Origin: Candidatus Eiseniibacteriota bacterium
GTDB lineage: Bacteria > Eisenbacteria > RBG-16-71-46
Direction: 5' to 3'
Assembly (NCBI GenBank): GCA_963707915.1
Contig: OY970178.1
Coordinates: 224,001-288,000, forward strand
DNA length: 64,000 nt
Part shown: piece by piece, positions 2,328 through 64,000 of the stretch
How positions within the stretch are numbered: the stretch's first letter is position 1
Layout of the letters: the number at the start of each line of letters is the position of its first letter
Made by a program: the position numbers and the translations under genes
The notes under the pieces: generated by a model
The model's database searches: none
What the model was told of the DNA's origin: nothing
Seen by the model: only the letters and a program-made list of their open reading frames with translations

Positions 2328-2475
2328 GGAGGTGACCTCGGAGCGCGCAGCATCAGGGCGGCGTTGCGGGAACCAGGCTCGGTTGTCGGACTCCCCCGGG
2401 AACGGGCGCTCGAGCTCCGAGATTGACGCAAGCCTGCCACAGGCGCGGACCGCAGGCAAACCGCGCGACCGGCCG

Positions 2476-8317: not shown

Positions 8318-8499
8318 CGGCCCTCGTCCGGCGGTCGGATCACGGCACGGGTGTCACCCCGTGACCGCGGGCCGCGGGAGGACGCGGTCAGGATAGCGCG
8401 GTTGGCTACCGTGCTTCCATCGGCCCGGCATCATGCACAAGCGGCGCGACGGGGTCGGCCCCGTTGGAATCGCGTTCCCGCCCTGTGGCATAGTGCGTC

Positions 8500-9993
<1,494 letters not shown>

Positions 9994-31959: not shown

Positions 31960-32206
31960 GAAGCGGGCCTCTCGCAGTTGGAGACGGGCGGATCGAACCC
32001 TTCACAGGGTCGGGCGCGGGTTGCTCCCGACGTCTTTGGGGACAGGCAAGAGGCTCATTGTAGATGAGCACGAGTCCACCTGCCGACCCGCCCCGTCCCC
32101 ACGTACCGGGAGTGCAGATACGTATATACGTCACCTACAGTCCTGTGGAATGCCGCGCCTCGTGAACGCCGCATCCACCATTTCTCCGCCCGCGCTCAAG
32201 GCAGAG

Positions 32207-45316: not shown

Positions 45317-46561
45317 GTGCGGGGCCGCGCCGCCGCATCGTCCCGCCGCGCGGCCCTCGCGGGGACGCTGGTCCTGCTCGCGGCGGGGATGCCCACCGGC
45401 CCCGGCCCGGCGGGCGTGCCGGAGGCGAGGGGGGAGCCGATGCTCCAGGTCATCGCGGTCGACGTGCCCGGCGGCACGCCCGTGGACGACCCGATCTGGA
45501 TCTCGGGCGACCTCCCCGCGCTGGGGGCGTGGAACGGCGCCGGCGTGCGGCTCGAACGCGTCGGAAGCGGGCGCTACCTGGCGCGCGTGGCCCTCGAGCG
45601 CGGTGCGCCCTTCGAGTTCAAGGTGACGCGCGGCAGCTGGGAGACGGTCGAGAAGGACGCGCGCGGCGGCGAGATCGCGAATCGGCGCGCCCGCTCGGGC
45701 GAGTCCGACACCCTCCGGGTGACGGTCGCCGGGTGGCGCGACCCGTCGGGGAGCGGCGCGGCGCGGCGCTCGACGCTCACCGGCGACGTGCGGCGGCACG
45801 CGGCGATCCCCTCGAGCTTCGTGCGCAGCCGTGAGGTGCTGGTGTGGCTCCCGCCGGGTTACGGGGCCGACCGCACCCGGCGCTACCCGGTGCTCTACTT
45901 CCACGACGGCAACAACGTCTTCGACGCGGCCACCAGCTTCAAGGGCACCGAGTGGGGCGCGGACGAGACCGCGGCGCGCCTGGTCCGGTCCGGCGCGCTG
46001 CGCCCCTGCATCCTGGTCGGCGTGGCGAACACGCCGGACCGCACGTCCGAGTACACGCCGGTCGCCGATGCCGGCCACGGCGGGGGAGGAGCGGCCGCGT
46101 ACGAGCGCTTCCTGGTCGAGGAGGTGAAGCCCTTCGTCGACCGCTCGTACCGGACGCTGGCGGGGCCGGGCGACACCGGGCTGGTCGGGTCCTCGCTGGG
46201 CGCCATCGTCTCGCTCGACCTGGCCCTGAAACGTCCGGACCTGTTCGGGCTGGTGGGCTGCGTGTCGCCCGCGGCCTGGTGGGCGGACCGCGACATCGTC
46301 CGCCGCGCCGCGGCCGCCCCGGTCGGGACCGCGCTGCGCATCTGGCTCGATATCGGCACGGCCGAGGGCACGGAGAAGGCCGGGGCCAGGGAGTGGCTCG
46401 ACGACGCGCGGGCCCTGCGGGGTGCGCTGGTGGCGCGCGGCTGGCGGGAGGGCGCAGGCCTGCACTACGAGGAGGTCGAGGGCGCGGTCCACGACGAGGG
46501 CGCCTGGGCGGCCCGGCTGGACCGGATGCTGGTGTTCCTGCTGGGGCCACCGCGGCCCTGA
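45317..46561 (+). CDS. CBM20-like starch-binding domain plus alpha/beta-hydrolase (putative esterase)
   Basis: ISGDLPALGAWN...FEFKVTRGSWETVE, then VWLPPGY, YPVLYFHDGNN, GSSLG, WLDIGTAEG, HDEGAW. Start uncertain. Confidence 0.82.
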   Translation: MRGRAAASSRRAALAGTLVLLAAGMPTGPGPAGVPEARGEPMLQVIAVDVPGGTPVDDPIWISGDLPALGAWNGAGVRLERVGSGRYLARVALERGAPFEFKVTRGSWETVEKDARGGEIANRRARSGESDTLRVTVAGWRDPSGSGAARRSTLTGDVRRHAAIPSSFVRSREVLVWLPPGYGADRTRRYPVLYFHDGNNVFDAATSFKGTEWGADETAARLVRSGALRPCILVGVANTPDRTSEYTPVADAGHGGGGAAAYERFLVEEVKPFVDRSYRTLAGPGDTGLVGSSLGAIVSLDLALKRPDLFGLVGCVSPAAWWADRDIVRRAAAAPVGTALRIWLDIGTAEGTEKAGAREWLDDARALRGALVARGWREGAGLHYEEVEGAVHDEGAWAARLDRMLVFLLGPPRP

Positions 46562-46647
46562 GGGCGGGGCGTGGCCGGGTTGTATCGATCCCGCCGATTC
46601 GCTAGGGTCCGAGCGACACTGAGCCGTACCTGCGCGGGAGAGCGACG

Positions 46648-47742
46648 ATGCCGACGGTCGAACTGATCCGGGTGAGCAAGACCTACGGGCGCGGCGCCCG
46701 CGCCGTGGACGACGTGAACCTCTCGATCCGCGACGGTGAGTTCCTGGTACTGGTGGGACCTTCGGGCTGCGGCAAGTCCACCGTGCTGCGCATGGTGGCG
46801 GGGCTCGAGGAGGTCACCGAGGGCGAGATCAGGATCGGTGACCGGGTGGTCAACGACGTCGCGCCCAAGGACCGGGACATCGCCATGGTGTTCCAGAACT
46901 ACGCGCTCTACCCGCACATGTCGGTCTACGACAACATGGCGTTCGGCCTGCGCCGCCGCAAGTTGCCCGCGGCCGAGGTGGACCGCAAGGTGCGCGGCGC
47001 GGCGGACACCCTCGGACTCGAGAGCTACCTGCAGCGCAAGCCGCGCGAGCTCTCGGGCGGCGAGCGGCAGCGCGTGGCGCTGGGGCGCGCCATGGTGCGC
47101 GATCCCCAGGTCTTCCTGTTCGACGAACCGCTCTCGAACCTGGACGCGAAGCTGCGCGTGCAGATGCGCGCGGAGATCAAGCGACTGCACCAGCGCGTGA
47201 ACGCCACCATGATCTACGTCACGCACGACCAGACCGAGGCGATGACGCTGGGCGACCGCATCGCCGTCCTGCGCCGGGGCGTGCTGCAGCAGGTCGCGGA
47301 CCCGTTCACGCTCTACGGGCGCCCGGCCAGCCAGTTCGTCGCCGGTTTCATCGGCAGCCCGCCCATCAACTTCTTCTCCGCCGCGCTCGACGAGGCCGGC
47401 ACGACGCTGCGGAGCGGGGCGGTGAGCATCGCCCTGCCGCCCGACGTGGCGGCACGACTCGCGCCGCGCCGCGGCAGGACGGTGACGCTGGGCATCCGGC
47501 CCGAGGACCTGCTACTCGAGGAGCGCGGGGCCGGCGTGGCGCTCGACGGGGTGGTGGACGTGCGCGAGCCGCTCGGTAACGAGGTGCTCGTCCATCTCGC
47601 CACGCCGGTCGGGCCGTTCATCGCGCGCTACCCGGGACAGGGCGTGCCCGAGGTGGGATCGAAGGCGAAGCTCCACTTCTCGTTCGCCAAGCTCCACTGC
47701 TTCGACCCCGACACCGAGCTCGCCCTGGACGGCGCCGGCTAG
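46648..47742 (+). CDS. Sugar ABC transporter ATP-binding protein (MalK/MsmX/UgpC family)
   Basis: GPSGCGKST, VFQNYALYPHM, LSGGERQR, DEPLSNLDAKLR, YVTHDQTEAMTL, GIRPE. Confidence 0.95.
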   Translation: MPTVELIRVSKTYGRGARAVDDVNLSIRDGEFLVLVGPSGCGKSTVLRMVAGLEEVTEGEIRIGDRVVNDVAPKDRDIAMVFQNYALYPHMSVYDNMAFGLRRRKLPAAEVDRKVRGAADTLGLESYLQRKPRELSGGERQRVALGRAMVRDPQVFLFDEPLSNLDAKLRVQMRAEIKRLHQRVNATMIYVTHDQTEAMTLGDRIAVLRRGVLQQVADPFTLYGRPASQFVAGFIGSPPINFFSAALDEAGTTLRSGAVSIALPPDVAARLAPRRGRTVTLGIRPEDLLLEERGAGVALDGVVDVREPLGNEVLVHLATPVGPFIARYPGQGVPEVGSKAKLHFSFAKLHCFDPDTELALDGAG

Positions 47743-47758
47743 GGCACCGCGCGGAACT

Positions 47759-47798
47759 CGAAGCGCCCCGCCGCAGCGCAGCGCGGCGGGGCGCTTCG
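47759..47798. terminator. Bidirectional terminator hairpin
   Basis: 16-bp stem CGAAGCGCCCCGCCGC / GCGGCGGGGCGCTTCG between convergent genes. Confidence 0.7.
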
Positions 47799-47812
47799 TT
47801 CGTCCGGCGAGA

Positions 47813-50515
47813 CTACTTCCCCGGCGTGGACTTCGCGGGCGCGCCCGGCTTCGCCAGCTTGAAGAGGCGACCGCTCTCCGGCGCGAGCGCGATCCTCGCG
47901 GCGCCGTCCCACGCCTCGGTCGTGCCGGCCAGCACGTCGAAGGCCTTGACGCTCCCGCCGAGCGCCGCGAGGTCCACGGGCACCTCGGCGGCCTCCTTGC
48001 CCGCGTTGAGCGCGACCAGCCACAGGTCCCCGCCGCCGGCGCGCACGTAGGCGTACGACTTGCCCTGGGCGTAGACCGTGCGGAAGTCGCCGGTGCGCAG
48101 CGCGGCGCTGGAGTGCCGCGTGGCCGTGAGCTTCTTGTAGTAGTCGAGCAGTTCGACCCGCCACGCGTCGCGGGCGTAGTCCCAGTAGAAGGGCCGGCGG
48201 CAGTCGGGGTCCTTGCCGCCCTCCATGCCCACCTCGTCGCCGTAGTAGATCTGGGGCGCGCCGACGTAGGTCATGGCGAACAGGGCGGCGAGCTTGAGAC
48301 GCTTGACGTTCCCGTTCACCTGGGTGAGGAAGCGCGGCGTGTCGTGGCTGTCGATCAAGTTCATCTGCGCCTCGACCGCCTGGCTCGGGTAGGCGAGCCG
48401 CCCCTGCGAGAGCGAGCCGTCGAACTCGGCGGCCGTGCCCTGGCCCAGGCCGAGGAACTTCGTGACCGGGTCGCGGAAGAAGGCGTAGTTCATCACCGCG
48501 TCGAAGACCCCGGGCTTCACCCAGTCGGTGGCGTTGCCCCACAGCTCGCCGACGATGTAGGCGTCGGGCTTGACCTTCTTCACCCGCTCGTTGAACAGCT
48601 TCCAGAACCAGCGGGGCACCTCGTTCGGGACATCGAGCCGCACGCCGTCGGCGTCGGCCACCTTGAGCCAGTACTCGGTCGTGTCGAGCAGGTACTGGAC
48701 CAGCGCGATGTTGGGCTGGGCGTCCTTGATGTCCTGGATGGTGCCTTCCTGCGGCCGCGTGTGCGCGAGGTCGAAATTGAGGGCGGGCAGGTCCCCGAAG
48801 CCCCACCAGCACTGGTAGTAGTCCGCCGGCTTCCACGGGCCGTCGACGTTCGGCCAGCCCTGCGGCAGCGGCCAGCGCTTGAACTCGAACCAGCTGTAGT
48901 AGGGGCTCTGCACACCCTTGTCGACCGCATCCTTGAACATGTACGACGTGTTGCCGCAGTGGTTGTAGACGATGTCGAGGACGATGCGGATGCCCCTGGC
49001 CTTCGCCTGCTTCACGAACGCGGCGAACTCCTCGTTGGTGCCGAAGTGCGGGTCGATCTTCGCGTAGTCCGCGGCGTCGTACTTGTGCGCCGATTTGGCC
49101 TGGAAGAGCGGGTTGAAGTAGATGACCGTGATGCCCAGGTCCTTCAGGTAGTCGAGCTTCTGCCGCACGCCCTCGATGTCGCCGCCGTAGAACACCATCC
49201 AGTCGCGGCCGTCCTGGGTGTAGGGGTTGCCGCTCAGCGCCTGCCAGTGGTTCCAGTCGCGATCCAGGTGGTAGTACTCCTGGTAGTCGGTGTTGAGCCT
49301 CCCGCTCGCGGGTGGCTGGTTGCGGCCCTGGTAGTACCACTCGGTGAAGTCGGGGTCGTTCGCGGTGCTGCCGTTGCGGAAGCGCTCCGGGTAGATCTGG
49401 TAGAAGATGCCGTTCCGGACCCAGTCCGGCGTGACGAAGGCGGGGAAGCGCGATTCCGCGTAGGCGAAGCGGCCTTCGGCGGCCGAGACCTTGAGACCGG
49501 CGCTCGTCAGGTACCAGCTCTTCGCCCCGTCACGGTAGCGGAACACGTACGGGGTCTCCCCGGCCGGCATCCTCACCTCGGTCCGGTAGTAGTCGTAGAC
49601 CTTGTCGCGGTTGGTCCAGCGCATCGGCGTCACCAGTTCCTTCGCGCCCTCGAAGCGGACCAGGTCCACGCCCTCCACGTCGTCCGCGTGGGCGCGCGCC
49701 GTGAACTCGACGAGCCCGCCGCCGCGGTTGTTGACCTCGTTCGCGCCCTGCCCGTGCGCGATGCCGTCGGGGTAGACCTTGCCGTCGCCGCGCTTCACCT
49801 CGATCTTCGGGAAGCGTTCGTCGACGTTCTTGACGGAGTTCTTGCCGCCGAAGCCGTCGTCGAGCTCGGCGTCCTGTCCGACCTTGTCCTGGGTCCAGCC
49901 GTTGTCGCCCACCACGAACTTGTACTGGTAGGTCCCCGCGGGCAGCAGCAGCGTGGCCGCGAAGTCGCCGTTGGCGTCCGGGCCGGCGAGCGGGTTCTTG
50001 CCCACGGTCCAGTCGTTGAACGTGCCCGCCACGCTGACGCGCTCCACCCGGGTCCCCGGGCGGAACACGAACGGCACCTGGTGGAGCCCGACGCCGGCCT
50101 GGGCCGCGGCCTTCTTCGGCGCGGCGCCGTAGCCGGCCACGAGCGGCTCGTCCTTCAGCACCAGCACCGCGTTCTGCCCGCCGAACCCGTCGGGCGAGGT
50201 GTCCGCGGCGTTCTCGTCGGCGAACCACTGGTCGCCATTCACCACGAACTTGTACTCGACGCGGCCGGGCGGGATCTCGACCGGGGCCTCCCAGACGCCG
50301 TCCTTGTTGTCGTCGTTCAGGGGATTGGCCTTGACGTCCCAGCCGTTGAAGTTGCCCGCCACGGCGACGCTGTTCACGCCGCCGATGACCGGCTGGTAGC
50401 GGAAGGTGACCTTGGTGGCCCACGCGGCCGTGGCGACGAGCAGCAGGCCGATCGTGGCCACGGTCGCGACGAACGCGCGGGAGCCCCGCGGTCCTGGGAG
50501 CGGCGTCCTCGTCAT
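47813..50515 (-). CDS. Signal-peptide GH13 neopullulanase/cyclomaltodextrinase-like enzyme with two N-terminal AMPK-type (CBM48-like) glycogen-binding domains
   Basis: AGNFNGW...YKFVV..W..D and AGTFNDW...YKFVV domains; FYQIYPERF, GGDIEG, HKYD, DIVYNH, DGVRLDV, VGELW, IDSHD, YYGDE.GM.G..DP.CR. Confidence 0.93.
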   Translation of the reverse strand: MTRTPLPGPRGSRAFVATVATIGLLLVATAAWATKVTFRYQPVIGGVNSVAVAGNFNGWDVKANPLNDDNKDGVWEAPVEIPPGRVEYKFVVNGDQWFADENAADTSPDGFGGQNAVLVLKDEPLVAGYGAAPKKAAAQAGVGLHQVPFVFRPGTRVERVSVAGTFNDWTVGKNPLAGPDANGDFAATLLLPAGTYQYKFVVGDNGWTQDKVGQDAELDDGFGGKNSVKNVDERFPKIEVKRGDGKVYPDGIAHGQGANEVNNRGGGLVEFTARAHADDVEGVDLVRFEGAKELVTPMRWTNRDKVYDYYRTEVRMPAGETPYVFRYRDGAKSWYLTSAGLKVSAAEGRFAYAESRFPAFVTPDWVRNGIFYQIYPERFRNGSTANDPDFTEWYYQGRNQPPASGRLNTDYQEYYHLDRDWNHWQALSGNPYTQDGRDWMVFYGGDIEGVRQKLDYLKDLGITVIYFNPLFQAKSAHKYDAADYAKIDPHFGTNEEFAAFVKQAKARGIRIVLDIVYNHCGNTSYMFKDAVDKGVQSPYYSWFEFKRWPLPQGWPNVDGPWKPADYYQCWWGFGDLPALNFDLAHTRPQEGTIQDIKDAQPNIALVQYLLDTTEYWLKVADADGVRLDVPNEVPRWFWKLFNERVKKVKPDAYIVGELWGNATDWVKPGVFDAVMNYAFFRDPVTKFLGLGQGTAAEFDGSLSQGRLAYPSQAVEAQMNLIDSHDTPRFLTQVNGNVKRLKLAALFAMTYVGAPQIYYGDEVGMEGGKDPDCRRPFYWDYARDAWRVELLDYYKKLTATRHSSAALRTGDFRTVYAQGKSYAYVRAGGGDLWLVALNAGKEAAEVPVDLAALGGSVKAFDVLAGTTEAWDGAARIALAPESGRLFKLAKPGAPAKSTPGK

Positions 50516-50589
50516 GGCTCGATACTCCTTGAGGGGGTTCGCGAAGTCCGGCGCGGGGGAGTCCCGCGCCGGTGGGTCGGTCGGAAGTC

Positions 50590-50620
50590 CGAAGCGCCGC
50601 CCGGTGCGGGCGGCGCTTCG
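50590..50620 (-). terminator. Intra-operon hairpin (terminator or mRNA stabiliser)
   Basis: 13-bp stem CGAAGCGCCGCCC / GGGCGGCGCTTCG just after the stop at 50628. Confidence 0.6.
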
Positions 50621-50627
50621 CGCAGGC

Positions 50628-52409
50628 TCACTTCACGGTGACGACCGAGTTCTTGCCGCCGTACGGATCGGCCTTGGACTCGGGATTGGCCTCGTCGATC
50701 TTCCAGGTGGTGCCGTTCACCACGAACTTGTACTCGTGGGTGCCGGGCGGCAGCTTCTTCGTGATGCTCCAGGTGCCGTCCGCCTGCTTCGCCAGCGGGT
50801 CGGCGGCGATCGCCCAGCCGTTGAACGCCCCGGCGAGCGCCACGCTCGTGGCCGCCCCGGCGAAGGTGAACACCACGCCGTCCGCGGTCGGGACGGGCGC
50901 GCGGCCCTTGCCCGCGGGGGTCGCCGTGGCGGCAGCCGGGGCCGCCGCAGTGGCCGCGGGCGCCGCCGCGCCGCCCACGATCACGACCGAGTTCTTGCCG
51001 CCATAGCCGTCGTCGGCCGTCTCCTGCGCGTTCGGGTCTTCCTTCCAGTTCGTGCCGTCGATCACGAACTTGTACATGTAGCGGCCGGGCTCGAGCTTCC
51101 GGGTGAGGGCCCAGCTGCCGTCGGCCTGCTTGGTGAGCGGATCGGCGGTGGTGTTCCAGGCATTGAACTCGCCGGCCACCGCGACCGAACCGCCGCCGCC
51201 CTTCCAGGCGAAGGTGACGCCGCCGGCGGAGGCCGCGGGCGCCGCGGGTGCGGCCTTCGCCACGGGCGCTGCGGATGCGGCAGGGGTCGCGCCGCCCACG
51301 ATCACGACCGAGTTCTTGCCGCCATAGCCGTCGTCGGCCGTCTCCTGCGCGTTCGGGTCTTCCTTCCAGTTCGTGCCGTCGATCACGAACTTGTACATGT
51401 AGCGGCCGGGCTCGAGCTTCCGGGTGAGGGCCCAGCTGCCGTCGGCCTGCTTGGCGAGCGGATCGGCGGTGGTGTTCCAGGCGTTGAACTCGCCGGCCAC
51501 CGCGACCGAACCGCCGCCGCCCTTCCAGGCGAACGTGACGCCGCTGGCGCCGTGGACGGCGCCCGTCCCGGGGGGGGGCGTGGCGTGGGCGGTGGCCGCG
51601 ACCTGCCGGGCCCCCGGCGGCGGGGTGAAGGTGAACAGGGCGGGGTCCGCAGGCTCCCCCAACGTCAACTTGCTGGAGATGAACTCCCCGAGGCAGGGGA
51701 TGGTGCGTCCGCACATGCCCAGGCGATACTCGGCGCGCAGCGGCAATCCGCTCGCACGGTCCAGCCAGAGCCGGATGGACGCCATCGGGTCCCCCGCATC
51801 GACCCGGTCGCACTCGTAGTGCTGCCCGCCGACGTCCAGGCGCACCGGCCCCGCGAGACTCACCTTCGTTCCGCCCTCGAGGACGGTGCCCGCCAGAAGT
51901 GCATAGGTCGCCGGGAGCGCGCTCAGGGCGGTCCTGGCTGCTTCGCCGATCTCGGGGCTCTCGGAATCGATCGGGTCCCCGGCCTTCCAGGGGCGGCTCG
52001 CGTATCGCCCCTCCTCCGGCGAATAGGCCCACAGCGTCTGCCCGTCGAAGACGATCAGGTCGACGCCCTTGGGCCCGGTGACCTCCGCGCGCTCCCGGCC
52101 GTCGGCGGCCCTGAAGTAGCGGAACGGCTGCCGGTGGTCGGATTCGGTGTACTTCACGTGGACGGTGCCCTCGATGGCGTAACCGCCCGCTTTCGCCAGC
52201 GCGCCGTCGAGCCCGCGGATCAGCGCGATCCCGCGCGCGTCACCCGTGGGTGCAGCCGGCTGCCCGGTGTCCGCGGCCTTCGCGGCGGGCGCGGTGGACG
52301 CGGCGGACGCGGCGGTTCCGGGAGGCGCGGCGTTGCGCCAGCCTCCCGCGCAGCCGGTCACGGCGAGCGCCACCAGGACCGCAGGAATCGTTCGCTTCAT
52401 CGTCGTCAT
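50628..52409 (-). CDS. Lipoprotein: LolA/LppX-like domain plus three AMPK-type glycogen-binding domains
   Basis: Lipobox LAVTGC; IVFDGQTLWAYSP, IRLWLDRASGLP and LFTFTPPPGA LolA-fold signatures; three AG(E/A)FN.W...YKFV..G..WK.D.....D.YGGKNSV domains; ATGA overlap. Confidence 0.82.
   Translation of the reverse strand: MTTMKRTIPAVLVALAVTGCAGGWRNAAPPGTAASAASTAPAAKAADTGQPAAPTGDARGIALIRGLDGALAKAGGYAIEGTVHVKYTESDHRQPFRYFRAADGRERAEVTGPKGVDLIVFDGQTLWAYSPEEGRYASRPWKAGDPIDSESPEIGEAARTALSALPATYALLAGTVLEGGTKVSLAGPVRLDVGGQHYECDRVDAGDPMASIRLWLDRASGLPLRAEYRLGMCGRTIPCLGEFISSKLTLGEPADPALFTFTPPPGARQVAATAHATPPPGTGAVHGASGVTFAWKGGGGSVAVAGEFNAWNTTADPLAKQADGSWALTRKLEPGRYMYKFVIDGTNWKEDPNAQETADDGYGGKNSVVIVGGATPAASAAPVAKAAPAAPAASAGGVTFAWKGGGGSVAVAGEFNAWNTTADPLTKQADGSWALTRKLEPGRYMYKFVIDGTNWKEDPNAQETADDGYGGKNSVVIVGGAAAPAATAAAPAAATATPAGKGRAPVPTADGVVFTFAGAATSVALAGAFNGWAIAADPLAKQADGTWSITKKLPPGTHEYKFVVNGTTWKIDEANPESKADPYGGKNSVVTVK
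50967..51546. repeat. Near-identical ~260-bp intragenic duplication (321-bp period) of a glycogen-binding domain
   Basis: 50967-51225 and 51288-51546 differ at only a few positions. Confidence 0.9.
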
Positions 52410-54040: not shown

Positions 54041-54071
54041 CGTAGGGCTCTCCGATTGATTCCCGCCGGCA

Positions 54072-54470
54072 TCAGCGGACGTCGATCACCGAGTTGTGAC
54101 CGCCGTAGCCGTCGTCCGTCCACTGGGGGTTGTTGGGGTCTTCCTTCCAGTTCACCCGATCCACCACGAACTTGTACAGCTTGCGCCCGGGCGGGAGCTT
54201 CTCGGTGCGCACCCAGAGGCCGCTGCCCGGGGGGCTCTCTTCCATCACGCCCACGTTGAAGCTGCCGGTCTGGGCCTGCCCCGCGAGCCAATTGTTCTCG
54301 GGCCAGTCCCCGGCGAGCTGCACCGTCCGCGCCGAGGGCGAGAAGAAGCGGAAGGTCACGCCGCTCGGTCCCTGCGTGGGGGGCGGCAGGCGGCGCTTGA
54401 CGAAGTTGAGAGTGCTGCACCCGGCGACCAGCAGGCCGAGGGCGAGCAGCAGGAGGGTCAGGTGTCGCAT
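54072..54470 (-). CDS. Small lipoprotein with a single AMPK-type glycogen-binding domain
   Basis: Lipobox LVAGC; VTFRFFSPSARTVQLAGDW...LPPGRKLYKFVVD..NWKEDPNN...DDGYGGHNSVI. Confidence 0.85.
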   Translation of the reverse strand: MRHLTLLLLALGLLVAGCSTLNFVKRRLPPPTQGPSGVTFRFFSPSARTVQLAGDWPENNWLAGQAQTGSFNVGVMEESPPGSGLWVRTEKLPPGRKLYKFVVDRVNWKEDPNNPQWTDDGYGGHNSVIDVR

Positions 54471-54488
54471 GGGGCTCCCCGCGGCCGG

Positions 54489-56654: not shown

Positions 56655-56683
56655 CGGTCTCCGCAGGCCTCCGGCCCCATCGG

Positions 56684-58216
56684 CTAGAAGTAGCCCTTCA
56701 GGATGAATTTCACGAGGTCCGTCTGGTCGCCACTGCCCTGGAGGTTGCCCTCGTCCACCGGGGTCGGGCTGTTGCCGATCCAGTCGGGTCCGTACTGCAG
56801 GTACATCTCCACGTTCCCGGTGGGGCGGTACTGCAACTGGGTGAAGACGGCCTTGCGCAGGATGGTGGCGTCGTTGCCGAAGGCGAAGCGGTTGTAGACC
56901 TTCAGCGCGTTGGTCAGGTTCACGGAGTTCTCGACGGCGTAGAGCTGCTTGTGCTCGGGCCGTCCCACGTTCTTGACCATCGCCTCCACCCGCAGCCAGG
57001 CGAGCTTGCTCTCGACCTGGACCTCGCCGAACCAGTCGTTGTAGTCCTCGCGGGCGGGCACGCCCATGACCTGGCGGTACTCGCTCCGCTGCCGGTAATA
57101 GGTCTTGCCGGTGAAGCCGTTGACGAACTCGATGTAGAGCTCGTTGTAGATCTGGTGCACCCGGTAGCGGCTGGTGGCGTAGCTGGAGTAGCCCAGCAGC
57201 TCGTTGGTGTAGGTGATGGCGCGCTCGGGCAGCAGGTAGTAGTTGTGGAGCTTGAACCCGGTCTCGTCGCGGCCCGGCTCGCCCTGCCCGTTCTGCCACT
57301 TCGCGCCGCGGGTCCAGTAGGTGGGGATGCAGTTCAGCGTCCCCAGCACCGGGAGCGTCAGGCGCAGCGTGCGGACCTCGGCCTGCAACACGTCCCGGTC
57401 GGGGAAGGCGATGCCGGTGGAGGTGCGGAACACCGTGACCTTGCGGCGCAGTTCCTCGGGGTACTGCACGGTGGGATCGGTGCCCTGGCTGGTGCCGTAC
57501 TCGAGCATGAAGTCCTGGCCGAGCCACTTGTAGCGGCCCGCCAGGCCGAAGATCTCGTTGCGGTCGCGGGTGCCGGCCTGGTTGTTCTCCCGCCGGCTCC
57601 AGGTGAACCCCAGCCGCAGCCGCTGGTCCTTGAAGAAGTCGCGGCGCACGCGGGCCAGGTAGATGTCGTCCGTCTTCAGCGGGTCGAGGCTGTTGTTGTA
57701 CTGGTCGCTGTAGTCGCCGACCAGGAACCAGGTGCTGAACCCGCCGTAGCCCCAGGTGTCGAAGCGCACGCCCTGCCCGCCGCCGTACCCGTTGATGAAG
57801 CGGATCAGGTACTGGTCCCAGGTGGGGAAGCGGTCCTGCTTCGAGTAGACGTAGGTGTCCATGCCGCGCTTGCCCTGCTCGCGGCGGAAGCGCATGTGCG
57901 CCTCGTTGAACTGGAACACCGGCCGCGCCGTGTTGTTGGAGCCGCTGTTCCAGTCCGCCGTGGCCTTCACGAAGGCCTCGATCCCCGGCCGGGGCTGGGA
58001 GAAGACCCGCAGTTCCACCGGGTCCCAGTTCTCGTCGCTGTTGCTGTTCCAGTCCCAGGGGAAGACCCGCCCGGTCTTGCGCAGGTCCATCATGAGCTGG
58101 TACTGGCCCTCGAGCTTGGTGAGCGCGTGCGCGGCGCCCGCCGCCAGCATCACGCACAGCGCGAGGCCGGCGGCCGACGCGAGCCGGGCCGCTCCGGGCG
58201 GCCGCCGCGCGCTCAC
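56684..58216 (-). CDS. Predicted outer-membrane beta-barrel protein (uncharacterised porin-like)
   Basis: Signal peptide ending AHA; alternating strands rich in Tyr, Trp and Phe; terminal beta-signal KFILKGYF; GTGA overlap. Confidence 0.75.
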   Translation of the reverse strand: MSARRPPGAARLASAAGLALCVMLAAGAAHALTKLEGQYQLMMDLRKTGRVFPWDWNSNSDENWDPVELRVFSQPRPGIEAFVKATADWNSGSNNTARPVFQFNEAHMRFRREQGKRGMDTYVYSKQDRFPTWDQYLIRFINGYGGGQGVRFDTWGYGGFSTWFLVGDYSDQYNNSLDPLKTDDIYLARVRRDFFKDQRLRLGFTWSRRENNQAGTRDRNEIFGLAGRYKWLGQDFMLEYGTSQGTDPTVQYPEELRRKVTVFRTSTGIAFPDRDVLQAEVRTLRLTLPVLGTLNCIPTYWTRGAKWQNGQGEPGRDETGFKLHNYYLLPERAITYTNELLGYSSYATSRYRVHQIYNELYIEFVNGFTGKTYYRQRSEYRQVMGVPAREDYNDWFGEVQVESKLAWLRVEAMVKNVGRPEHKQLYAVENSVNLTNALKVYNRFAFGNDATILRKAVFTQLQYRPTGNVEMYLQYGPDWIGNSPTPVDEGNLQGSGDQTDLVKFILKGYF

Positions 58217-59166
58217 CGGGCCCTCCGGCCGCTGAGCGGGACCAGCACGCTGACGCGGTAGGAGGCGCCGAGGTCGTGGTTGGTGGTGACCGCCGCGTCC
58301 ACGTAGTAGCCCTGGTGGAAGACGCCGAAGCCGCCGGTGTACTGGAAGTCCCCGGGCCAGCCGTTGGACTGTACGATCGGCCGCAGGTTGGTGAGGCCGG
58401 AGCGCACCGCGAAGACATCGTAGAAGAGGATCTCGAACCCGAGGTTCAGCGAACTCCGCGTGCGGTCCACCTGCGACCAGGCGGCCGTGACGGTGGACTC
58501 CTTGTTCCAGCGCAGCGCGGCGGCGAACTCGCTGCGGAACGGCACCGGGCCGCCGCCGGAGCCGGGGATGAACTCGAAGCGCGGCGCGAGCAGATCGCGC
58601 CCCACCCAGGCCAGGTCCACGCGCCAGGGCGTGGTCCAGAGCAGCCCGGCGTCGAGCGAGCCCTTGGACTGCGAGCCGTAGTCCACCCGCATCCCGGCGT
58701 CCGCCGCGGCAAAGGCGGCGACGTCGAACGGTTGGAGGCCCACCCGCTCGAACTTGAAGGTGGCGCCCGCCGCCAGCCGGTGCCCGCGGCCGAAGTCGCG
58801 CACCCTGCGCCCGGCCGAGACGCTCAGCAGGTCCTCGGCGTAGGCGTCCGCGATGCCGAGCCGGTGCCAGCCCAGCGCCCAGCCGGTCCCCCGGTACCGC
58901 GACCCGACCAGCAACGCGCCCTCGGAGAGGTCCTGCACGCCGTAGGGCCGGCAGTAGTCGGTGAACACCTGGGTGCCGCCGAGGTCCGCGAGCCCCGCCG
59001 GATTCCAGTAGCCCGCGGTCACGTCGCGGATGCTGGCCAGCGCCGAGAAGCCCAGCGAGACGCCGCGCGAGCCCACCGCGGTCTCCTCGAAGTAGGCCGC
59101 GGCGGGGCGCACCGCGATCGCGGCCGCGAGGCCGAGGGCGAGCGCGGCGATGCGGGCGGTCCTCAA
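58213..59166 (-). CDS. PorV/PorQ/PorP-like (FadL-superfamily) outer-membrane barrel
   Basis: VGSRGVSLG.SA.A...D......NPAGLA N-terminal signature; LAAGATFKF, LDAGLLW, AVRSGL, YRVSV; TTG start overlapping the upstream stop. Confidence 0.75.
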   Translation of the reverse strand: MRTARIAALALGLAAAIAVRPAAAYFEETAVGSRGVSLGFSALASIRDVTAGYWNPAGLADLGGTQVFTDYCRPYGVQDLSEGALLVGSRYRGTGWALGWHRLGIADAYAEDLLSVSAGRRVRDFGRGHRLAAGATFKFERVGLQPFDVAAFAAADAGMRVDYGSQSKGSLDAGLLWTTPWRVDLAWVGRDLLAPRFEFIPGSGGGPVPFRSEFAAALRWNKESTVTAAWSQVDRTRSSLNLGFEILFYDVFAVRSGLTNLRPIVQSNGWPGDFQYTGGFGVFHQGYYVDAAVTTNHDLGASYRVSVLVPLSGRRAR

Positions 59167-60458
59167 CGCACCACCACCACGGCGCGGGTCTGCCGGCTCA
59201 GGTTGGGCTCGATGACCAGCCGCACGACGTAGACCCCGGGAGGCACGATCTGGCCCGACGCGTCCCGGCCATCCCAGGTGTCCAGCGCCGGGGCGACGTA
59301 GCAGCCCGGGCAGCCCGCGCTGACCCTGCGCTGGTTGCTGATGTACAGGTTGCGCACGAAGCGGCCGCGCATGTCGAAGACGTTCGCGGTGAGATCCATC
59401 GTGCGCTCGGGGTCGTTCGGGCCGAGGCGCGGCGTGATGTCGAAGCGGAAGTCGAGCCGCTCTCCGCGATCGGGGGCGAACGCCGGGCGGCTGAACTCGA
59501 GCTCGGCGAGCCCGAAGCGCACGGGCACGATCGGGACCGGGAAACGGAAGCGGAAGCGCCCCGGCTCCAGGCGGTCGGTCGGCGAGACGCCCCAGTCCGG
59601 GAAGCCGTCCGGGGCGCCGCGCCCGGGGCCCACGTCGTCCTTCAGGTCGAGGGCGATCTCGGCGAAGTTGTCGATGTAGACGAAGGCGGAGCCGTCGCTG
59701 GTGTGGCCGCGCGTGTTGTCGGGGGCCGAATCGGGGCCGCCGGTGTTGTCCCCGCCGGCCGTGATGGCGGCGCAGAGCTTGAGCCGGCGCTGCCCGGGCG
59801 GGAACCAGCGCAGCGTGTCGGTCCGGCCGCCGACCGTGACCACCGAGTCGCGCGTCTCGGGATCGTTCGCGAACACCACCTTCCAGGGGATCGCCATCTC
59901 CATCGCGCGGCCGTCGCGGTCCTGGGAGAACGTCGAAGCGGCGCTGAACGGCCCGCTGCCGACCTGCTGGTCGGTCACCTGCGTCCCGCCGTTCGCGATG
60001 ACGAGGTGGGGGGTCGGGTTGTTGTCCCAGGTCGCCCCGAACAGGTCGGGCGCGAAATCGTTGTCGTGCGCCGCGTCCGACACGTCGAAGCTGAAGTTGC
60101 GCGACCAGGAGTTGAGGCCGCTCATCGTGGTCAGGCCCTGGCCCGGGATCGCGTCCACCCAGATCACGAGGTTGTTGCCCCAGATCTTCGCTTCGCCCGC
60201 GAGGTAGAGGCTGTCCGCGTCCCAGGTGACCAGGACCTGGGTGACGTCGTTGTTGACCCCCCACTTCGAATCGTCGATCGGTTCTTCGGGCAGCTTCAGG
60301 GTCGCGTTGTAGCCGAAGATCCGCTCGTCCGCGGCCCAGTCGCTGGTGGCGCCGTCGATGACGATGCGCTGGCCCATGTCGCGGGCGGTCGTGGCGCCGA
60401 GCGGGGAGGGGAGCAGGAGTGGGAGCAGCAGGAAGGGGGCGGCCAGCGCGCGTCTCAT
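59163..60458 (-). CDS. Secreted DOMON/CBM9-like protein with FlgD-Ig/T9SS-like C-terminal domain
   Basis: Signal peptide; IVIDG..SDW, VTWDADSLYL, EMAIPW; C-terminal VFDMRGRFVRNL...WDGRDASGQIVPPGVYVVRL. Confidence 0.75.
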   Translation of the reverse strand: MRRALAAPFLLLPLLLPSPLGATTARDMGQRIVIDGATSDWAADERIFGYNATLKLPEEPIDDSKWGVNNDVTQVLVTWDADSLYLAGEAKIWGNNLVIWVDAIPGQGLTTMSGLNSWSRNFSFDVSDAAHDNDFAPDLFGATWDNNPTPHLVIANGGTQVTDQQVGSGPFSAASTFSQDRDGRAMEMAIPWKVVFANDPETRDSVVTVGGRTDTLRWFPPGQRRLKLCAAITAGGDNTGGPDSAPDNTRGHTSDGSAFVYIDNFAEIALDLKDDVGPGRGAPDGFPDWGVSPTDRLEPGRFRFRFPVPIVPVRFGLAELEFSRPAFAPDRGERLDFRFDITPRLGPNDPERTMDLTANVFDMRGRFVRNLYISNQRRVSAGCPGCYVAPALDTWDGRDASGQIVPPGVYVVRLVIEPNLSRQTRAVVVVR

Positions 60459-60503
60459 GCGGTCCTCGGGTCACGGTGGGCGAGAACACGCACCGTGCCA
60501 CGC

Positions 60504-60532
60504 ATAATGCCCGCCGGCCTGCGGAGGGTCAA
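60504..60532 (-). promoter_or_regulatory. Sigma70-like promoter for the minus-strand alpha-glucan operon
   Basis: TTGACC-17 nt-CATTAT on the minus strand, about 45 nt upstream of the ATG at 60458. Confidence 0.6.
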
Positions 60533-60589
60533 GTCCCGGGGCCCGATCGCGGACGCGGCCGCGCGCCCCTGCGGGGCGCCGGTCCGTGG

Positions 60590-60619
60590 TTGCCGGGGTC
60601 GCGATGCGCGGAATATAAT
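60590..60619 (+). promoter_or_regulatory. Sigma70-like promoter for the divergent gene
   Basis: TTGCCG-18 nt-TATAAT. Confidence 0.6.
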
Positions 60620-60742
60620 CAGGCGGCCTGACCGCTCCCGTGCCGCAGGTTTCGCGGCCGGGCCGGCATGCGCCCGATCGGGCTCGGCGCGCTGCCGGAT
60701 CGTCGTGCTCCCAAGGGACCGCCCGGCTGGAGACTCCCCGCG

Positions 60743-63241
60743 ATGAGACTGCTACGCCCCCTGCTCCTGGCCTCCTGCCTCCTGGTCGCTGCCGCGCCGG
60801 CGCTCGCCTACGACGCGCAGACCATCACGGTGGACGGCGTCAACGACTTCGTGCCCTCGAACCTGGTGAGGGACGACCGCTACGACACGCAGCGCTTCTT
60901 CTGCTCGCCCGACTCGGTCTTCCCGCTCGACATCGGACGGGTGTTCGTGACCAACGACAACAACTTCCTGTACATCGGCTTCGACTGGCCGCACAAGTGG
61001 AACTGCTACGACAAGAGCCCGAAGCCGAACCTCGGCATCGCCATCGACGTCAACACCGCGGCCGGCGGCACGACCGACCCGTGGGGGCGCAAGATCGGCT
61101 GGGCGAACGTCCCGAACAAGCCCGACTTCGTGGTCTACGACGTGCCGAAGAACCCGGAGGACGCCTACCACTTCCAGGTGATGTACAAGTGGACCGGTAC
61201 GGCGTGGGGCGACAGCACGAGGCTGGTGAACGGCGTGGGCTCGGGCCCGAACGCGCTGGGCATGGTGGACACCACCGGCTTCGTCGAGTTCAGGCTGCCG
61301 CTCGCGGCGCTGGGCGTCACCTCGGGTGCGCAGCTCAACCTGGAGTGGTGGTACACCCAGGACGGCGGCAACAAGGGCCCGCTCGACGCGGCCATGAGCA
61401 GTGACGTGCAGATGTCGAGTTTCCCGAGCCGGACGGCGTGGGACACGACGGTGGTCGTGCAGATGACCGCCATGGCCCCGTACACCGTGCTGGCCTTCAA
61501 CGACGTCACCCCGCCCACGGTGAGCCAGGCGGTGGCGGCGAACTTCCCGCTGCTGGCCGACAAGCAGTTCGGCCTGAGCACCAACAAGATCGACGTGACC
61601 TTCAACGAGCCGGTGGAGCAGGCCTCGGCGAACATCGCGGCCAACTACGTCTTCAGCGGCCCGGTCTCGCGCACCGTCATCGCGGCCTCCCGCGACCTTG
61701 CCGCACCGACCGTCGTGCACCTGCTGCTCACGTCGGCCATCCAGGCGAACGCCGCCTTCTACAACATCACCGTGAACAACGTGAGGGACCTGGCCAGCAA
61801 CACCATCGTGTCGGATGGCATCACCAACGTGGGCTCGTTCTTCATCCAGGACCTGGTCTTCAACGTCGATCCCGCCGTGGCGCTCTGCCGGGCCACGGTC
61901 GCGGCCGGCGACACGTTCGCGGTCGAGGGGAGCCTGGCGCCCCTGACCATGGCCAGCCTGTGCGACAACGGCCTGATGTACGACGGCGACGCGAACCTGG
62001 TCTGGAGCACGACCGTACCCTTCGCGATGCCGAAGAACGCCGTCAGCGGCAAGGCGGAGGCCGACCTCGAGTACAAGTACTCGCACAAGTGCGGCTTCGA
62101 GAGCGGCGCCAACCGCACCTACCACCTGTCCAGCGACAACGGCGCGAGCGTGCCACTGACCGACGCCTGGAACCGGGACAACCCGGCGGACTTCACGGCC
62201 CAGGCGGTGGACGTGATCTTCCAGGTGAACGCCGCGCGGGTCACGCCGACGCCGGCCGATACGATCTACCTGCAGGGGAACGAGTCGCCGTTGAGCTTCA
62301 CGCCCGCCGGGCTGGCGATGGCGGACGACGGCGTGGCTCCCGACCTGGCCGCGGGGGACGGCATCTACACGCGGAAGGTGCGTTTCCCGAGGTGCGCGCG
62401 GAAGAACGCCGAGTGGAAGGTCTTCTACCGGGGCGCGTTCGAGTGCTTCCAGCAGGGCAACCGAACGGTCTGGATCAACGATGCCGCCTACGACACGGTG
62501 GGCGGGGCGATGGGGCCGCTCTGGCTGCCGGCCCGCGGCATCGAGCGCTGCTCGGTGACGGACAAGCCGGTGACGGTGGTGTTCAGCGTGAGCATGTTCC
62601 CCCAGCCGCCGGCCGCGGACACCGTGGCGGTGCTGGGCAGCATCGCCCCCCTGGTGTGGGATCTGCCCATCGTCTCGCAGGCCCGCCTGAACGACGCGGG
62701 GGTGGCGTTCGACCAGGTGGCGGGCGACCGCCTCTGGACCGCCGGCGTCACCTTCCCGGACAGTTCGAACCTGAACCTGGAGTTCAAGTTCTGGCACAAC
62801 GGCATCCTCGAGTGCTTCGGGATGGGCAACCGGACCATGACCCTCGACGACGTGCTCTACTCCACGGCGACGCCCCAGGTGCGGCCGCCGAGCGTCTGGG
62901 ACTACTGCAGTGACGCCACGACCGGGGTGCTGGACGGACCGCGTCCGCAGGAGCCGCCGGCGGGCTTCGCGGTGCTCAACCAGAGCTTCCCCAACCCGAT
63001 GAGCCCGCGCACCACGATCCGCTTCGACCTCAGGCGCGCCGGCGTGGTGACGCTGTCGGTCTACGACGTGACGGGGCGGCGGGTCGCCACGCTGGTGAGC
63101 GGCGAACTCCAGGCCGGCCCGCACGACGTGCGCTGGGACGGCCGGGACGACGTCGGCAACCGGCTGCGCAGCGGCGTGTACCTCTGCGAGCTGGCCATGG
63201 GCAAGGACCGCCTCAGTCGCCGGATCGTGATCACGCGGTAA
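60743..63241 (+). CDS. Secreted multidomain carbohydrate-binding protein (DOMON-like, Ig-like, ~3 CBM20-like modules, FlgD-Ig/T9SS-like CTD)
   Basis: Signal peptide; ITVDG, VTNDNNFLYIG, VEFRLPL; repeated V.F.V.....GS.APL.W...D.G...D..AGD..W/Y...EY/FK modules; QSFPNP...WDGRDD.G....SGVY. No catalytic motif recognised. Confidence 0.75.
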   Translation: MRLLRPLLLASCLLVAAAPALAYDAQTITVDGVNDFVPSNLVRDDRYDTQRFFCSPDSVFPLDIGRVFVTNDNNFLYIGFDWPHKWNCYDKSPKPNLGIAIDVNTAAGGTTDPWGRKIGWANVPNKPDFVVYDVPKNPEDAYHFQVMYKWTGTAWGDSTRLVNGVGSGPNALGMVDTTGFVEFRLPLAALGVTSGAQLNLEWWYTQDGGNKGPLDAAMSSDVQMSSFPSRTAWDTTVVVQMTAMAPYTVLAFNDVTPPTVSQAVAANFPLLADKQFGLSTNKIDVTFNEPVEQASANIAANYVFSGPVSRTVIAASRDLAAPTVVHLLLTSAIQANAAFYNITVNNVRDLASNTIVSDGITNVGSFFIQDLVFNVDPAVALCRATVAAGDTFAVEGSLAPLTMASLCDNGLMYDGDANLVWSTTVPFAMPKNAVSGKAEADLEYKYSHKCGFESGANRTYHLSSDNGASVPLTDAWNRDNPADFTAQAVDVIFQVNAARVTPTPADTIYLQGNESPLSFTPAGLAMADDGVAPDLAAGDGIYTRKVRFPRCARKNAEWKVFYRGAFECFQQGNRTVWINDAAYDTVGGAMGPLWLPARGIERCSVTDKPVTVVFSVSMFPQPPAADTVAVLGSIAPLVWDLPIVSQARLNDAGVAFDQVAGDRLWTAGVTFPDSSNLNLEFKFWHNGILECFGMGNRTMTLDDVLYSTATPQVRPPSVWDYCSDATTGVLDGPRPQEPPAGFAVLNQSFPNPMSPRTTIRFDLRRAGVVTLSVYDVTGRRVATLVSGELQAGPHDVRWDGRDDVGNRLRSGVYLCELAMGKDRLSRRIVITR

Positions 63242-63270
63242 GCGGGGGAGGGCGCGGAGGCACACCGGGA

Positions 63271-63305
63271 GGGCGCCCGCCCCGGGGCGGGCGCCTTCCC
63301 CTTCC
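63271..63305 (+). terminator. Terminator hairpin
   Basis: GGGCGCCCGCCC...GGGCGGGCGCCT followed by a pyrimidine run. Confidence 0.5.
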
Positions 63306-63408
63306 CGGGTCGGCCGGCGCCTCGGGCCGGGTGAAATGCCCCGCGCGAGGTCGGCGCCGCGGCGAGTCTCCCGTGGCTGGCCGGGGCGAAGACGCGGTGT
63401 CCGGCGTC

Positions 63409-63437
63409 TTGGAAGGCGTCCGCGCTCCTGATACAAT
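63409..63437 (+). promoter_or_regulatory. Sigma70-like promoter with extended -10
   Basis: TTGGAA-17 nt-TACAAT with TGn upstream of the -10. Confidence 0.55.
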
Positions 63438-63658
63438 CGTACGGCGTTCGTCCGGGATGGCGTGCGGACGGCCTTCCGGTTGGTCGCTGGCCCTGGGGAG
63501 GTGTCGCTCTACGGTCCTGACGGCTGCACCTGCCTGCGGAACGGATCTCACATCACTGCACTCGCTCACGTTCTTCGGAACGGGTCCCGTACGGCCACAC
63601 GGGTCTGGCCGCCGACGGGGCCATGCTGGATCCCGTCCGACCCGGTGGAGACTCCTCG

Positions 63659-64000
63659 ATGAAGTTCCTGCGCTACTCCCTCTCCGCCCTCTGCCTGCTC
63701 GCCGCCCTCGGCTTCGCCGCCGACGCCCAGGCTGCGATCGGCTGGGCCGGCAACGTCTGGCCGCTCCACAACTCCGTCCAGGTCCCGACCGGTCCGGTCA
63801 CCGTGTACGCCCAGGCCTGGAAGGGTGGGGTCACCGATTCGCCCGGACAGGGCGCCGGCATCTCGGCCGAGCTGTTCTACAAGACCGACATCGCCCCGAC
63901 CGAAGTCAGCGTCGCGATGGCCTACCAGGGTGACGTCGGCAGCAACGACGAGTACAAGGGCGACGTGCCCCAGAGCGCCCTCGCCGGCGCCGCGTGGGTC
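63659..64000 (+). CDS. Secreted protein, N-terminal part only (runs off the window); probably alpha-glucan related
   Basis: Manual translation MKFLRYSLSALCLLAALGFAADAQA-AIGWAGNVWP...VTVYAQAWKGGVTD...GDVGSNDEY; GGAG RBS; open to the window end. Confidence 0.7.
   Translation, partial: MKFLRYSLSALCLLAALGFAADAQAAIGWAGNVWPLHNSVQVPTGPVTVYAQAWKGGVTDSPGQGAGISAELFYKTDIAPTEVSVAMAYQGDVGSNDEYKGDVPQSALAGAAWV

Follow-up and report, generated by a model that had tools for sequence, protein, structure and literature searches.

How does a bacterium with an outer membrane take up alpha-glucans when its genome offers neither a SusCD pair nor a LamB porin? The question is raised by a gene cluster, g1 to g8, in a 64,000-nucleotide (nt) stretch of DNA from Candidatus Eiseniibacteriota bacterium (assembly GCA_963707915.1, contig OY970178.1). 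This stretch, hereafter the window, covers positions 224001-288000 of a 3.62-Mb genome that was assembled as one contig and has a marker-gene completeness of 94.8%. Outer-membrane glycan uptake is known mainly from TonB-dependent systems of the SusCD type and from LamB-type porins. The results below give good support to the view that the cluster belongs to a locus for alpha-glucan utilisation whose outer-membrane module is undescribed. With somewhat less assurance, we lean towards a broader reading, in which it is a conserved locus for the use of glycogen, starch or maltodextrin in non-Bacteroidota members of the Fibrobacterota-Chlorobiota-Bacteroidota (FCB) group and the g1-g5 outer-membrane module replaces SusCD or LamB.

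The window is 72% G+C and its raw lists of open reading frames (ORFs) are crowded; genes were called from a frame plot of codon-position GC (GC3) together with inspection of start codons. The plot gave one coding frame per stretch for eight genes on the minus strand, running from 60458 to 47813 (Table 1), and thereby supports the eight-gene operon that a sequence-only reading of this DNA had proposed. Genes overlap by 4 nt at three junctions (g1/g2, g2/g3 and g6/g7) and are separated by 29, 18 and 31 nt at three others, as had been described, but a gap of 112 nt between g7 and g8 (50516-50627) had gone unmentioned. A consensus promoter scan of this unusually long spacer found nothing; g8 may have a promoter or regulatory element of its own there. 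The suggestion that the operon has its own promoter agrees with two sigma-70-like sites, the only ones in 47000-61000 (0.3 expected), both located in the 209-nt divergent spacer 5' of g1 and both pointing outward. All eight products start with a signal peptide or a lipobox, as read from the translations, and the lipobox is clear in g5 and g7 and looser in g6. Likewise, the seven CBM48/AMPK-type carbohydrate-binding modules (CBMs) that had been counted in four exported proteins were recovered with Pfam (one in g4, one in g5, three in g7 and two in g8).

To see what could serve this locus at the outer membrane, the whole genome was searched for the known components. SusD_RagB (PF07980) and SusD-like_3 (PF14322) had no match in the 3.62 Mb, with a Bacteroides thetaiotaomicron control detected, and LamB (PF02264) had none genome-wide, with an E. 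coli control detected. Genes for TonB-dependent transporters (TBDTs) are present, as 11 Plug-domain genes, of which none lies in the window and the nearest is about 90 kb from it. The earlier description of a locus that lacks SusC/SusD and LamB agrees with these results. Furthermore, nothing similar to the 11 TBDTs was found in 41 related loci from other genomes, for which stretches of at most about 20 kb were compared.

The products of g3 and g4 are instead two large barrels that match no characterised transporter by sequence, neither in Pfam nor through their family profiles. The AlphaFold model of g3, built with an alignment of 63 family members, has a predicted local distance difference test (pLDDT) score of 87.4 and is all-beta, with about 24 strands by DSSP in a barrel that starts at residue 32. 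The former label "porin-like" thus understated g3. At least 161 relatives of g3 were found at E<=0.001 among the best 7999 candidates scored, and those bearing a source name are Candidatus Eisenbacteria. None of the 63 family members matched a relevant Pfam family (E<=0.1), apart from one marginal Legionella_OMP match. Foldseek returned generic outer-membrane barrels only, at TM-scores of 0.53 or less. With VIA-align the model matched usher barrels (Z 16-17; residues 28-510, 378 aligned, root-mean-square deviation (rmsd) 3.7), AlgE over part of its length (Z 17.0), Wzi (Z 16.1) and TBDT barrels (Z about 14.5).

For g4, with an alignment of 45 relatives that an exhaustive HMMER search had supplied, AlphaFold gave a pLDDT of 89.4 and a predicted TM-score of 0.82. 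The model consists of a CBM48 (residues about 28-111), a linker of about 20 residues that is rich in Gly, Ala and Pro and modelled less confidently, and a barrel (132-720) that has about 22 strands by DSSP and ends in a C-terminal Phe. Three helices lie in its final loop (residues about 674-709), together with several positions that rank among the best conserved in the family. A fusion of a CBM to a barrel had been read from the sequence, and the CBM half was confirmed: AMPK1_CBM scored 50.3 bits against a Pfam cut-off of 26.8, and the modelled domain aligned to solved CBM48s with Z 12-13 and rmsd 1.6-2.4. The fusion is present in all 40 full-length members of the 45-row alignment and in 95 of 101 relatives of the barrel region, the remaining six being shorter proteins, and is thus fixed in the family. 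Residues 133-721 aligned to the barrel domains only of Cir (163-663), BtuB (136-594) and the SusC-like BT1762, with Z 15.1-15.4, rmsd 3.9-4.5 and 346-366 residues aligned (for the SusC-like chain 5t3r_D, Z 15.4 and 366 residues), and other barrel classes followed within 1-3 Z units. LamB (1mpr_A) was among these with a partial alignment of residues 160-606 (Z 14.6). The g4 barrel may therefore have a TBDT-like fold and could be a TBDT derivative that lacks the plug.

A plug is indeed what both barrels lack. Neither g3 nor g4 matched the Plug family (PF07715, E<=0.01), and the models leave no room for one, as the g3 barrel directly follows the signal peptide and the CBM48 occupies that place in g4; nor does the g3 model have an N-terminal extension that could carry a TonB box. 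TBDT barrel families were matched by none of the 45 g4-family members (E<=1) or the 63 g3-family members (E<=0.1), and the two family profiles found no TBDT or other barrel among solved chains (E<=1). The two barrels themselves seem to be remote paralogues, since the g3 family aligned by hhalign over 219 columns with the g4 barrel's first half (probability 86%, E 4.7e-6), a relation that BLASTP of g3 against g4 did not show in any meaningful way (E 0.65). A language-model atlas had pointed to DUF6029 clusters for the g4 barrel; this lead was dropped, as no DUF6029 match occurred in the 45 family members (E<=1). The same atlas also led to an unnamed cluster in which the commonest phylum is Bacteroidota.

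Most of the proteins encoded after the barrels are predicted, by family, to bind or cleave alpha-glucans. The small lipoprotein g5 is the best-conserved protein of the module, with 39-73% identity across phyla, and among 32 aligned homologues, drawn from several phyla, Cys18 is invariant and there are 23 invariant columns. Its AMPK1_CBM match (25.3 bits) is just below the Pfam cut-off of 26.8 and, with the lipobox, agrees with the single-CBM lipoprotein read earlier; its conserved Trp, Lys, Trp and Asn correspond to the residues by which the AMPK beta CBM contacts glycogen. The lipidated Cys is followed at once by a peptide of the type (L/M)NFIKKRLPPP, kept in at least four phyla, which is unlike both the acidic surface-export signal of Bacteroidota and the Lol-avoidance rule of E. 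coli, and which may be a docking tether for a barrel. In g7, AMPK1_CBM matched three stretches (155 bits), and the LolA-like part that completes the LolA-3xCBM lipoprotein of the sequence-only reading was marginal (DUF2092, 22 bits against a cut-off of 21.2); relatives conserve the CBM half only. The exception is g6, which had been called SusE-like. The SusE and SusF families were absent from its matches (Pfam-A scan, E<=0.01), all matches that it had were below threshold (CarboxypepD_reg, X25_BaPul_like and AMPK1_CBM), and its relatives are partial matches with 25-38% identity. For g8, the expected exported enzyme of glycoside hydrolase family 13 (GH13) was found, with Alpha-amylase (PF00128) at 213.5 bits, AMPK1_CBM at 74 bits in two stretches and no type IX secretion system (T9SS) C-terminal domain (CTD). 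Its NCBIfam scores, 356 bits for maltodextrin glucosidase and 293 bits for cyclomaltodextrinase, are both under the equivalog cut-offs, and we predict an activity of the neopullulanase/cyclomaltodextrinase/MalZ type. CBM48 modules are common in secreted enzymes too. In this locus the conserved core has them as well, in g4 and g5, and a predicted specificity for alpha-glucans is thereby part of that core.

Conservation of the module was followed in two sets of loci by tblastn with the window proteins. The in-phylum set comprised some 20 kb of sequence surrounding g3 from each of 20 genomes picked for long contigs and family spread; the second set was 21 of the 78 loci that a pattern scan with the g3 alignment returned from 185,579 species genomes. 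Although many stretches were cut by contig ends, g1-g5 were colinear in 35 of the 41 loci (18/20 in the phylum and 17/21 of the others), and g3-g4-g5 in all 21 of the second set, which includes records labelled Cloacimonadota, Neomarinimicrobiota, Krumholzibacteriota and, probably, Fibrobacteraceae. Gene order is thus strongly conserved, also across phyla. The lipoprotein genes always lay downstream of the barrel genes, the neighbours were mostly homologues of window genes, and GH13 and ATP-binding cassette (ABC) genes were usually present. In several Eisenbacteria families the module continues on the same strand into genes for a substrate-binding protein (SBP) and two permeases, and in loci labelled Neomarinimicrobiota the two groups are directly contiguous on one strand. 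Loci of the Cloacimonadota type read SBP-permease-permease-(x)-g1-g2-g3-g4-g5-(x)-GH13, and MalK may or may not be present. A search of 206 genomes of the phylum detected g3 in 60 (41 among the 121 of high quality), spread over 12 of 18 GTDB families, the g4 barrel in 55 and both in 54; five of the six genomes with g3 only belong to one divergent family (f15), where the two loci retrieved have a partial g4-like match beside g3. There was no named cultured isolate among the records of carrier genomes. A search of sequencing runs gave two DNA runs only (0.14 and 0.06 of sampled words) and no RNA run.

The inner-membrane part of the pathway lies largely past the end of the window. As the sequence-only reading had suggested looking there for malEFG, we followed the contig beyond 64000 and found, in an operon on the minus strand, genes for a T9SS-CTD protein of 1401 aa, an SBP_bac_1 lipoprotein (104 bits) and two BPD_transp_1 permeases. 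Together with the ATPase between the esterase gene and g8, whose OB_MalK and TOBE_2 matches agree with the MalK type proposed for it, these are the components of a MalEFGK-like importer, and by family the transporter would be of the CUT1/MalEFGK type, with its substrate as a prediction. Past 64000 the order is the remainder of the CBM20 gene, an insertion sequence fragment, the operon with the ABC and 1401-aa genes, and the gene for a secreted GH13; the functional locus extends roughly from window position 45317 to the window equivalent of 75870. The malQ gene had correctly been placed elsewhere in the window. Other descriptions of the flanks fared unevenly. The esterase of the supposed CBM20-esterase is clear and its gene is syntenic in several relatives, but its CBM20 match is below the cut-off. 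Divergent secreted CBM proteins had been expected, and a CBM20 was found in the protein that starts at 63623 but no CBM was detected by Pfam in the 857-aa protein. The latter passed the TIGR04183 cut-off for a T9SS type-A CTD (25.5 against 23 bits), phmmer found no solved relative beyond this domain, and its gene is syntenic within one family of the phylum (f1). Domain scans showed no glycosyltransferase or synthase among the genes of the locus. Since it combines exported GH13 enzymes, an esterase, an SBP-dependent ABC importer and MalQ, with no glycosyltransferase seen, the locus appears catabolic and import-directed.

Table 1. Genes of the alpha-glucan locus and associated features. Positions are those of the window; bits are domain-match scores.
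Feature	Position	Strand	Length	Description
g1	59163-60458	-	431 aa	signal peptide
g2	58213-59166	-	317 aa	small FadL-superfamily barrel, distant relative of PorV/PorP
g3	56684-58216	-	510 aa	signal peptide, barrel of about 24 strands without plug, C-terminal Phe
g4	54489-56654	-	721 aa	signal peptide, CBM48, linker, barrel of about 22 strands
g5	54072-54470	-	132 aa	lipoprotein, one CBM48
g6	52406-54040	-	544 aa	probable lipoprotein, beta-sandwich/CBM-like repeats
g7	50628-52409	-	593 aa	lipoprotein, LolA-like/DUF2092 and three CBM48
g8	47813-50515	-	900 aa	signal peptide, two CBM48, then GH13
Esterase	45317-46561	+		Esterase 124 bits; N-terminal CBM_20 17.6 bits, cut-off 23.3
MalK/UgpC-type ABC ATPase	46648-47742	+		ABC_tran, OB_MalK, TOBE_2; NCBIfam UgpC 479 bits, MalK 396 bits
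Secreted protein	60668-63241	+	857 aa	T9SS type-A CTD, divergent from g1; FlgD_ig 44 bits
CBM20 protein	63623 to window equivalent 64807	+	394 aa	CBM_20 60 bits
malQ (GH77)	8494-9993			from domain scan
GH13 with CTD	past 64000, divergent from ABC operon		1140 aa	Alpha-amylase 194 bits

At the upstream end of the operon, g1 and g2 suggest a link between the module and the T9SS. The sequence-only reading described g1 as a CTD-bearing, DOMON-like protein. Its CTD does appear to be of the FlgD-Ig/T9SS-CTD-like kind: the family profile matched a FlgD Ig domain (E 5e-5) and the PorU C-terminus (E 0.044), and the single sequence matched the PorU C-terminus (E 0.0018), with no TIGR04183 or Por_Secre_tail match reported. 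The N-terminal domain had no Pfam match, and its CBM9/DOMON-like nature is a lead from look-alike clusters in the language-model atlas, where g1 resembles CBM9_1 and Por_Secre_tail proteins of several FCB phyla. The PorV/PorP-like barrel proposed for g2 held up, as a distant relation. A profile of 36 homologues had PorV (6h3i_F, E 7.2e-12) as its sole significant solved match, and family members matched TraF_2 (20/36), Toluene_X (20/36) and PorP_SprF (10/36). The scores of g2 itself were low (33.8 bits for NCBIfam PorV_fam, where the cut-off is 90, 44 against 325 for PorVQ2, and 22 bits, below threshold, in a genome-wide PorV-family search), and we regard it as a distant PorV relative in the FadL/PorV superfamily. 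The genome has SprA and eight PorV-family paralogues above the cut-off, with g2 not among them, and four CTD proteins have their genes within the locus or next to it. Four of the eight PorV-family paralogues lie 2.5-6 kb from four of the 11 Plug receptor genes (near contig positions 15521/21199, 131682/137757, 1033971/1040009 and 3070526/3073068). This suggests that PorV-like barrels are routinely paired with uptake barrels in this genome, perhaps docking binders delivered by the T9SS in place of SusD-type lipoproteins.

Among the candidates for surface enzymes is the 1401-aa protein, which is encoded at L001:5439-9644 in the numbering of the flanking stretch (minus strand; window equivalent 68439-72644). 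Its GH57 match of 17 bits is below the cut-off, and CTDs were its only matches among solved chains (phmmer). It is 42-55% identical to proteins encoded next to the module in loci of Eisenbacteria, Cloacimonadota and Neomarinimicrobiota, and is probably an undescribed secreted enzyme active on alpha-glucans.

Arranged by predicted location, these proteins suggest a route from the surface to the cytoplasm. The 1140-aa GH13, the 1401-aa and 857-aa proteins and g1 would be secreted by the T9SS and act at the cell surface, where we place them on account of their C-terminal domains and the presence of SprA. PorQ holds PorZ at the surface, and the PorV-like barrel g2 might hold g1 there. Glucan chains would then traverse the outer membrane through the plug-less barrels of g3, g4 or both. 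Passage through the outer membrane is the most economical role for these two modelled barrels, as their genes always stand between one for a surface-type protein and those for periplasm-directed binders and enzymes, in loci without another conduit. By analogy with known barrels, the N-terminus of g4 and its CBM48 should be periplasmic. The CBM48s of g4, g5, g7 and g8 could there bind the incoming chain and, acting as a sink, give diffusion a direction with no need of TonB. Chains would be trimmed by g8, a GH13 by family, to products the size of maltose or maltotriose, for which the lipoprotein SBP, the two permeases and the MalK-type ATPase, all assigned by family, would be the importer, and in the cytoplasm the GH77-family MalQ would process them. 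Possibly, g3 and g4 even form an unrecognised TonB-independent glycan translocon, in which a ratchet of CBM48s (on the periplasmic N-terminus of g4, on the lipoproteins and on the periplasmic GH13) pulls long threaded chains inward, the PorV-like barrel docks a binder delivered by the T9SS and the ancestor was perhaps TBDT-like, so that several uncultured FCB phyla would have a counterpart of SusCD; this more specific proposal is tentative, and we find it rather doubtful.

Several results weigh against a replacement of SusCD or LamB by the module. Barrel fold matches are generic, with ushers, TBDTs, AlgE, Wzi and porins within 1-3 Z units of one another, and for that reason the fold of g3 and g4 assigns no function by itself. 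Maltodextrin import could be the work of any of the 11 TBDTs encoded elsewhere in the genome, as it is of MalA in Caulobacter. The locus is patchy, as with this query 146 of 206 phylum genomes had no g3 match, including three of seven other genomes of the same genus. In addition, possession of a g3 homologue was the criterion by which all 41 loci were chosen, and they come from related genomes; the synteny counts therefore do not represent independent events. An arrangement in which maltodextrins enter through unrelated porins or the 11 TBDTs, and g2, g3 and g4 merely hold the amylolytic CTD proteins and CBM lipoproteins at the surface as an "amylosome", would fit the relation of g2 to PorV, the role of PorV/PorQ-type barrels in holding CTD proteins, the number of such proteins in and beside the locus and the PorV-family paralogues and SprA of the genome; Wzi, a capsule-anchoring lectin barrel, is also among the fold matches of g3. 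However, 22-24 strands far exceed what an anchor needs, none of the 41 loci has another outer-membrane conduit (as searched by similarity to the 11 TBDTs), the CBM48 of g4 is at the end that is periplasmic in known barrels, and tight operonic linkage to SBP and permease genes suits a transport chain. We therefore judge such an anchoring platform unlikely, though it is the strongest of the rivals.

It is less probable still that the barrels move protein, either as a Slam-like device for g5-g7 or with g4 exposing its own CBM48 in the manner of an autotransporter. The order of passenger, flexible linker and C-terminal barrel in g4 is what such a device would have, the invariant Cys and NFIKKRLPPP-type peptide of g5 resemble a recognition tether, and the lipoprotein genes always follow the barrel genes. 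Against this, autotransporter barrels have 12 strands and Slam 14, compared with about 22-24 here, the paralogous barrel pair was adjacent in every locus examined, and with the barrels given over to protein the locus would still be without a conduit for sugar. The least likely rival, for which we see hardly any room, is that the cell handles a glucan of its own, by exporting, anchoring or remodelling an endogenous periplasmic or capsular glycogen-like polymer. The fold matches include AlgE for g3 (Z 17.0, over part of the model) and exopolysaccharide export barrels of the PelBC type for g4 (Z 12.4), and the UniRef name of one g3 homologue starts with "Alginate expo...", but Pfam Alginate_exp matched none of the 63 g3-family members (E<=0.1) and was rejected as the family of g3. 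Moreover, the locus shows no synthase or glycosyltransferase, and the partner proteins are degradative (GH13 twice, the GH57-like protein and the esterase) and import-directed. Uptake of alpha-glucans through the g1-g5 module thus remains the reading that we prefer.

The surroundings of the locus hold some further features. A transposase fragment of the integrase-core (rve-like) kind, identified by eye from its translation, lies between the CBM20 gene and the permease genes (L001:1900-2318, minus strand), and a Mutator-family transposase gene is located near the start of the window (1603-3747, plus strand). As the ABC operon is closer to or contiguous with the module in relatives and the transposase fragment separates them here, the locus may be rearranged in this genome. 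Adjoining the gene of the secreted GH13, L001:13632-16607 (minus strand; window equivalent 76632-79607) encodes a 991-aa protein with a response-regulator receiver domain and PPDK_N, which may be a regulator or a glucan-dikinase-like enzyme. Farther on, the C- and N-terminal domains of a Glu/Leu/Phe/Val dehydrogenase are in separate ORFs about 330 nt apart (L001:16680-17249 and 17584-18123, minus strand), possibly owing to a frameshift, an insertion or an artefact of the simple ORF caller. Within the window, 28714-32001 (minus strand) encodes an unusual 1095-aa fusion of PD40/WD40-like propeller repeats, a BSP-type peptidase match and a C-terminal barrel of the Omp85 superfamily.

What the locus adds is the joining of exported CBM48 and GH13 proteins and a maltose-type importer to two barrels that are modelled with high confidence and have neither a Pfam family nor a solved relative by sequence. 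If the barrels are the conduit, this would be a route for large sugars that needs no TonB energy, g1-g5 would be a marker set for the scavenging of alpha-glucans or necromass glycogen in metagenomes, and several new protein families would be available for structural work. In databases the proteins of the module are named "hypothetical" or "glycogen-binding domain-containing", and the literature that we could search, in which subscription journals are thinly covered, gave no description of the CBM48-barrel fusion or of the locus. The outer-membrane module thus consists of undescribed protein families, and would be categorically new if the conduit and ratchet reading is right.

CymA-type channels are a further route for maltodextrins, beside SusCD and LamB. 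The sequence-only reading had spoken of a third architecture. This overstated the background in view of CymA and of MalA, and the g4 barrel may, as said, be a TBDT derivative and not something unrelated. MalA of Caulobacter is a TonB-dependent maltodextrin transporter (cited in PMC6851124). It is a barrel of the 22-strand type for maltodextrin uptake outside Sus and LamB, as g3 and g4 would be on the reading proposed here, but MalA has a plug and needs TonB/ExbBD, whereas g3 and g4 have no Plug match or room for one. To the PorU-PorV and PorZ-PorQ pairs the likeness is that g2, with PorV as its solved relative, directly follows the CTD-like g1, whereas its score of 33.8 bits against a cut-off of 90 and the eight bona fide PorV-family paralogues elsewhere in the genome set it apart.

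With the Sus system the locus shares surface or secreted amylases, non-catalytic starch-binding proteins, a large barrel gene followed by lipoprotein genes and an exported GH13 of the neopullulanase type. It differs from Sus in having no plug, no TonB_dep_Rec match, no SusD-family protein and no SusE/SusF match, and by the CBM48 on a barrel, the two paralogous barrels beside a PorV-like one and the T9SS CTDs on surface proteins; import across the inner membrane is by an ABC transporter here and by a major facilitator superfamily transporter in Sus. The LamB-MalEFGK system is matched in the SBP, two permeases, MalK-type ATPase with OB/TOBE and MalQ, and probably in a passage that is independent of TonB. 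In contrast to the trimeric maltoporin with its 18 strands, the barrels here have about 22-24, there is no LamB match, CBM48s are found on a barrel and on lipoproteins, and enzymes are secreted by the T9SS. Judged by its protein families, the cluster lacks the features that define SusC and other TBDTs, SusD and LamB, and it appears to be Sus-like in its logic and Mal-like in its ABC import.

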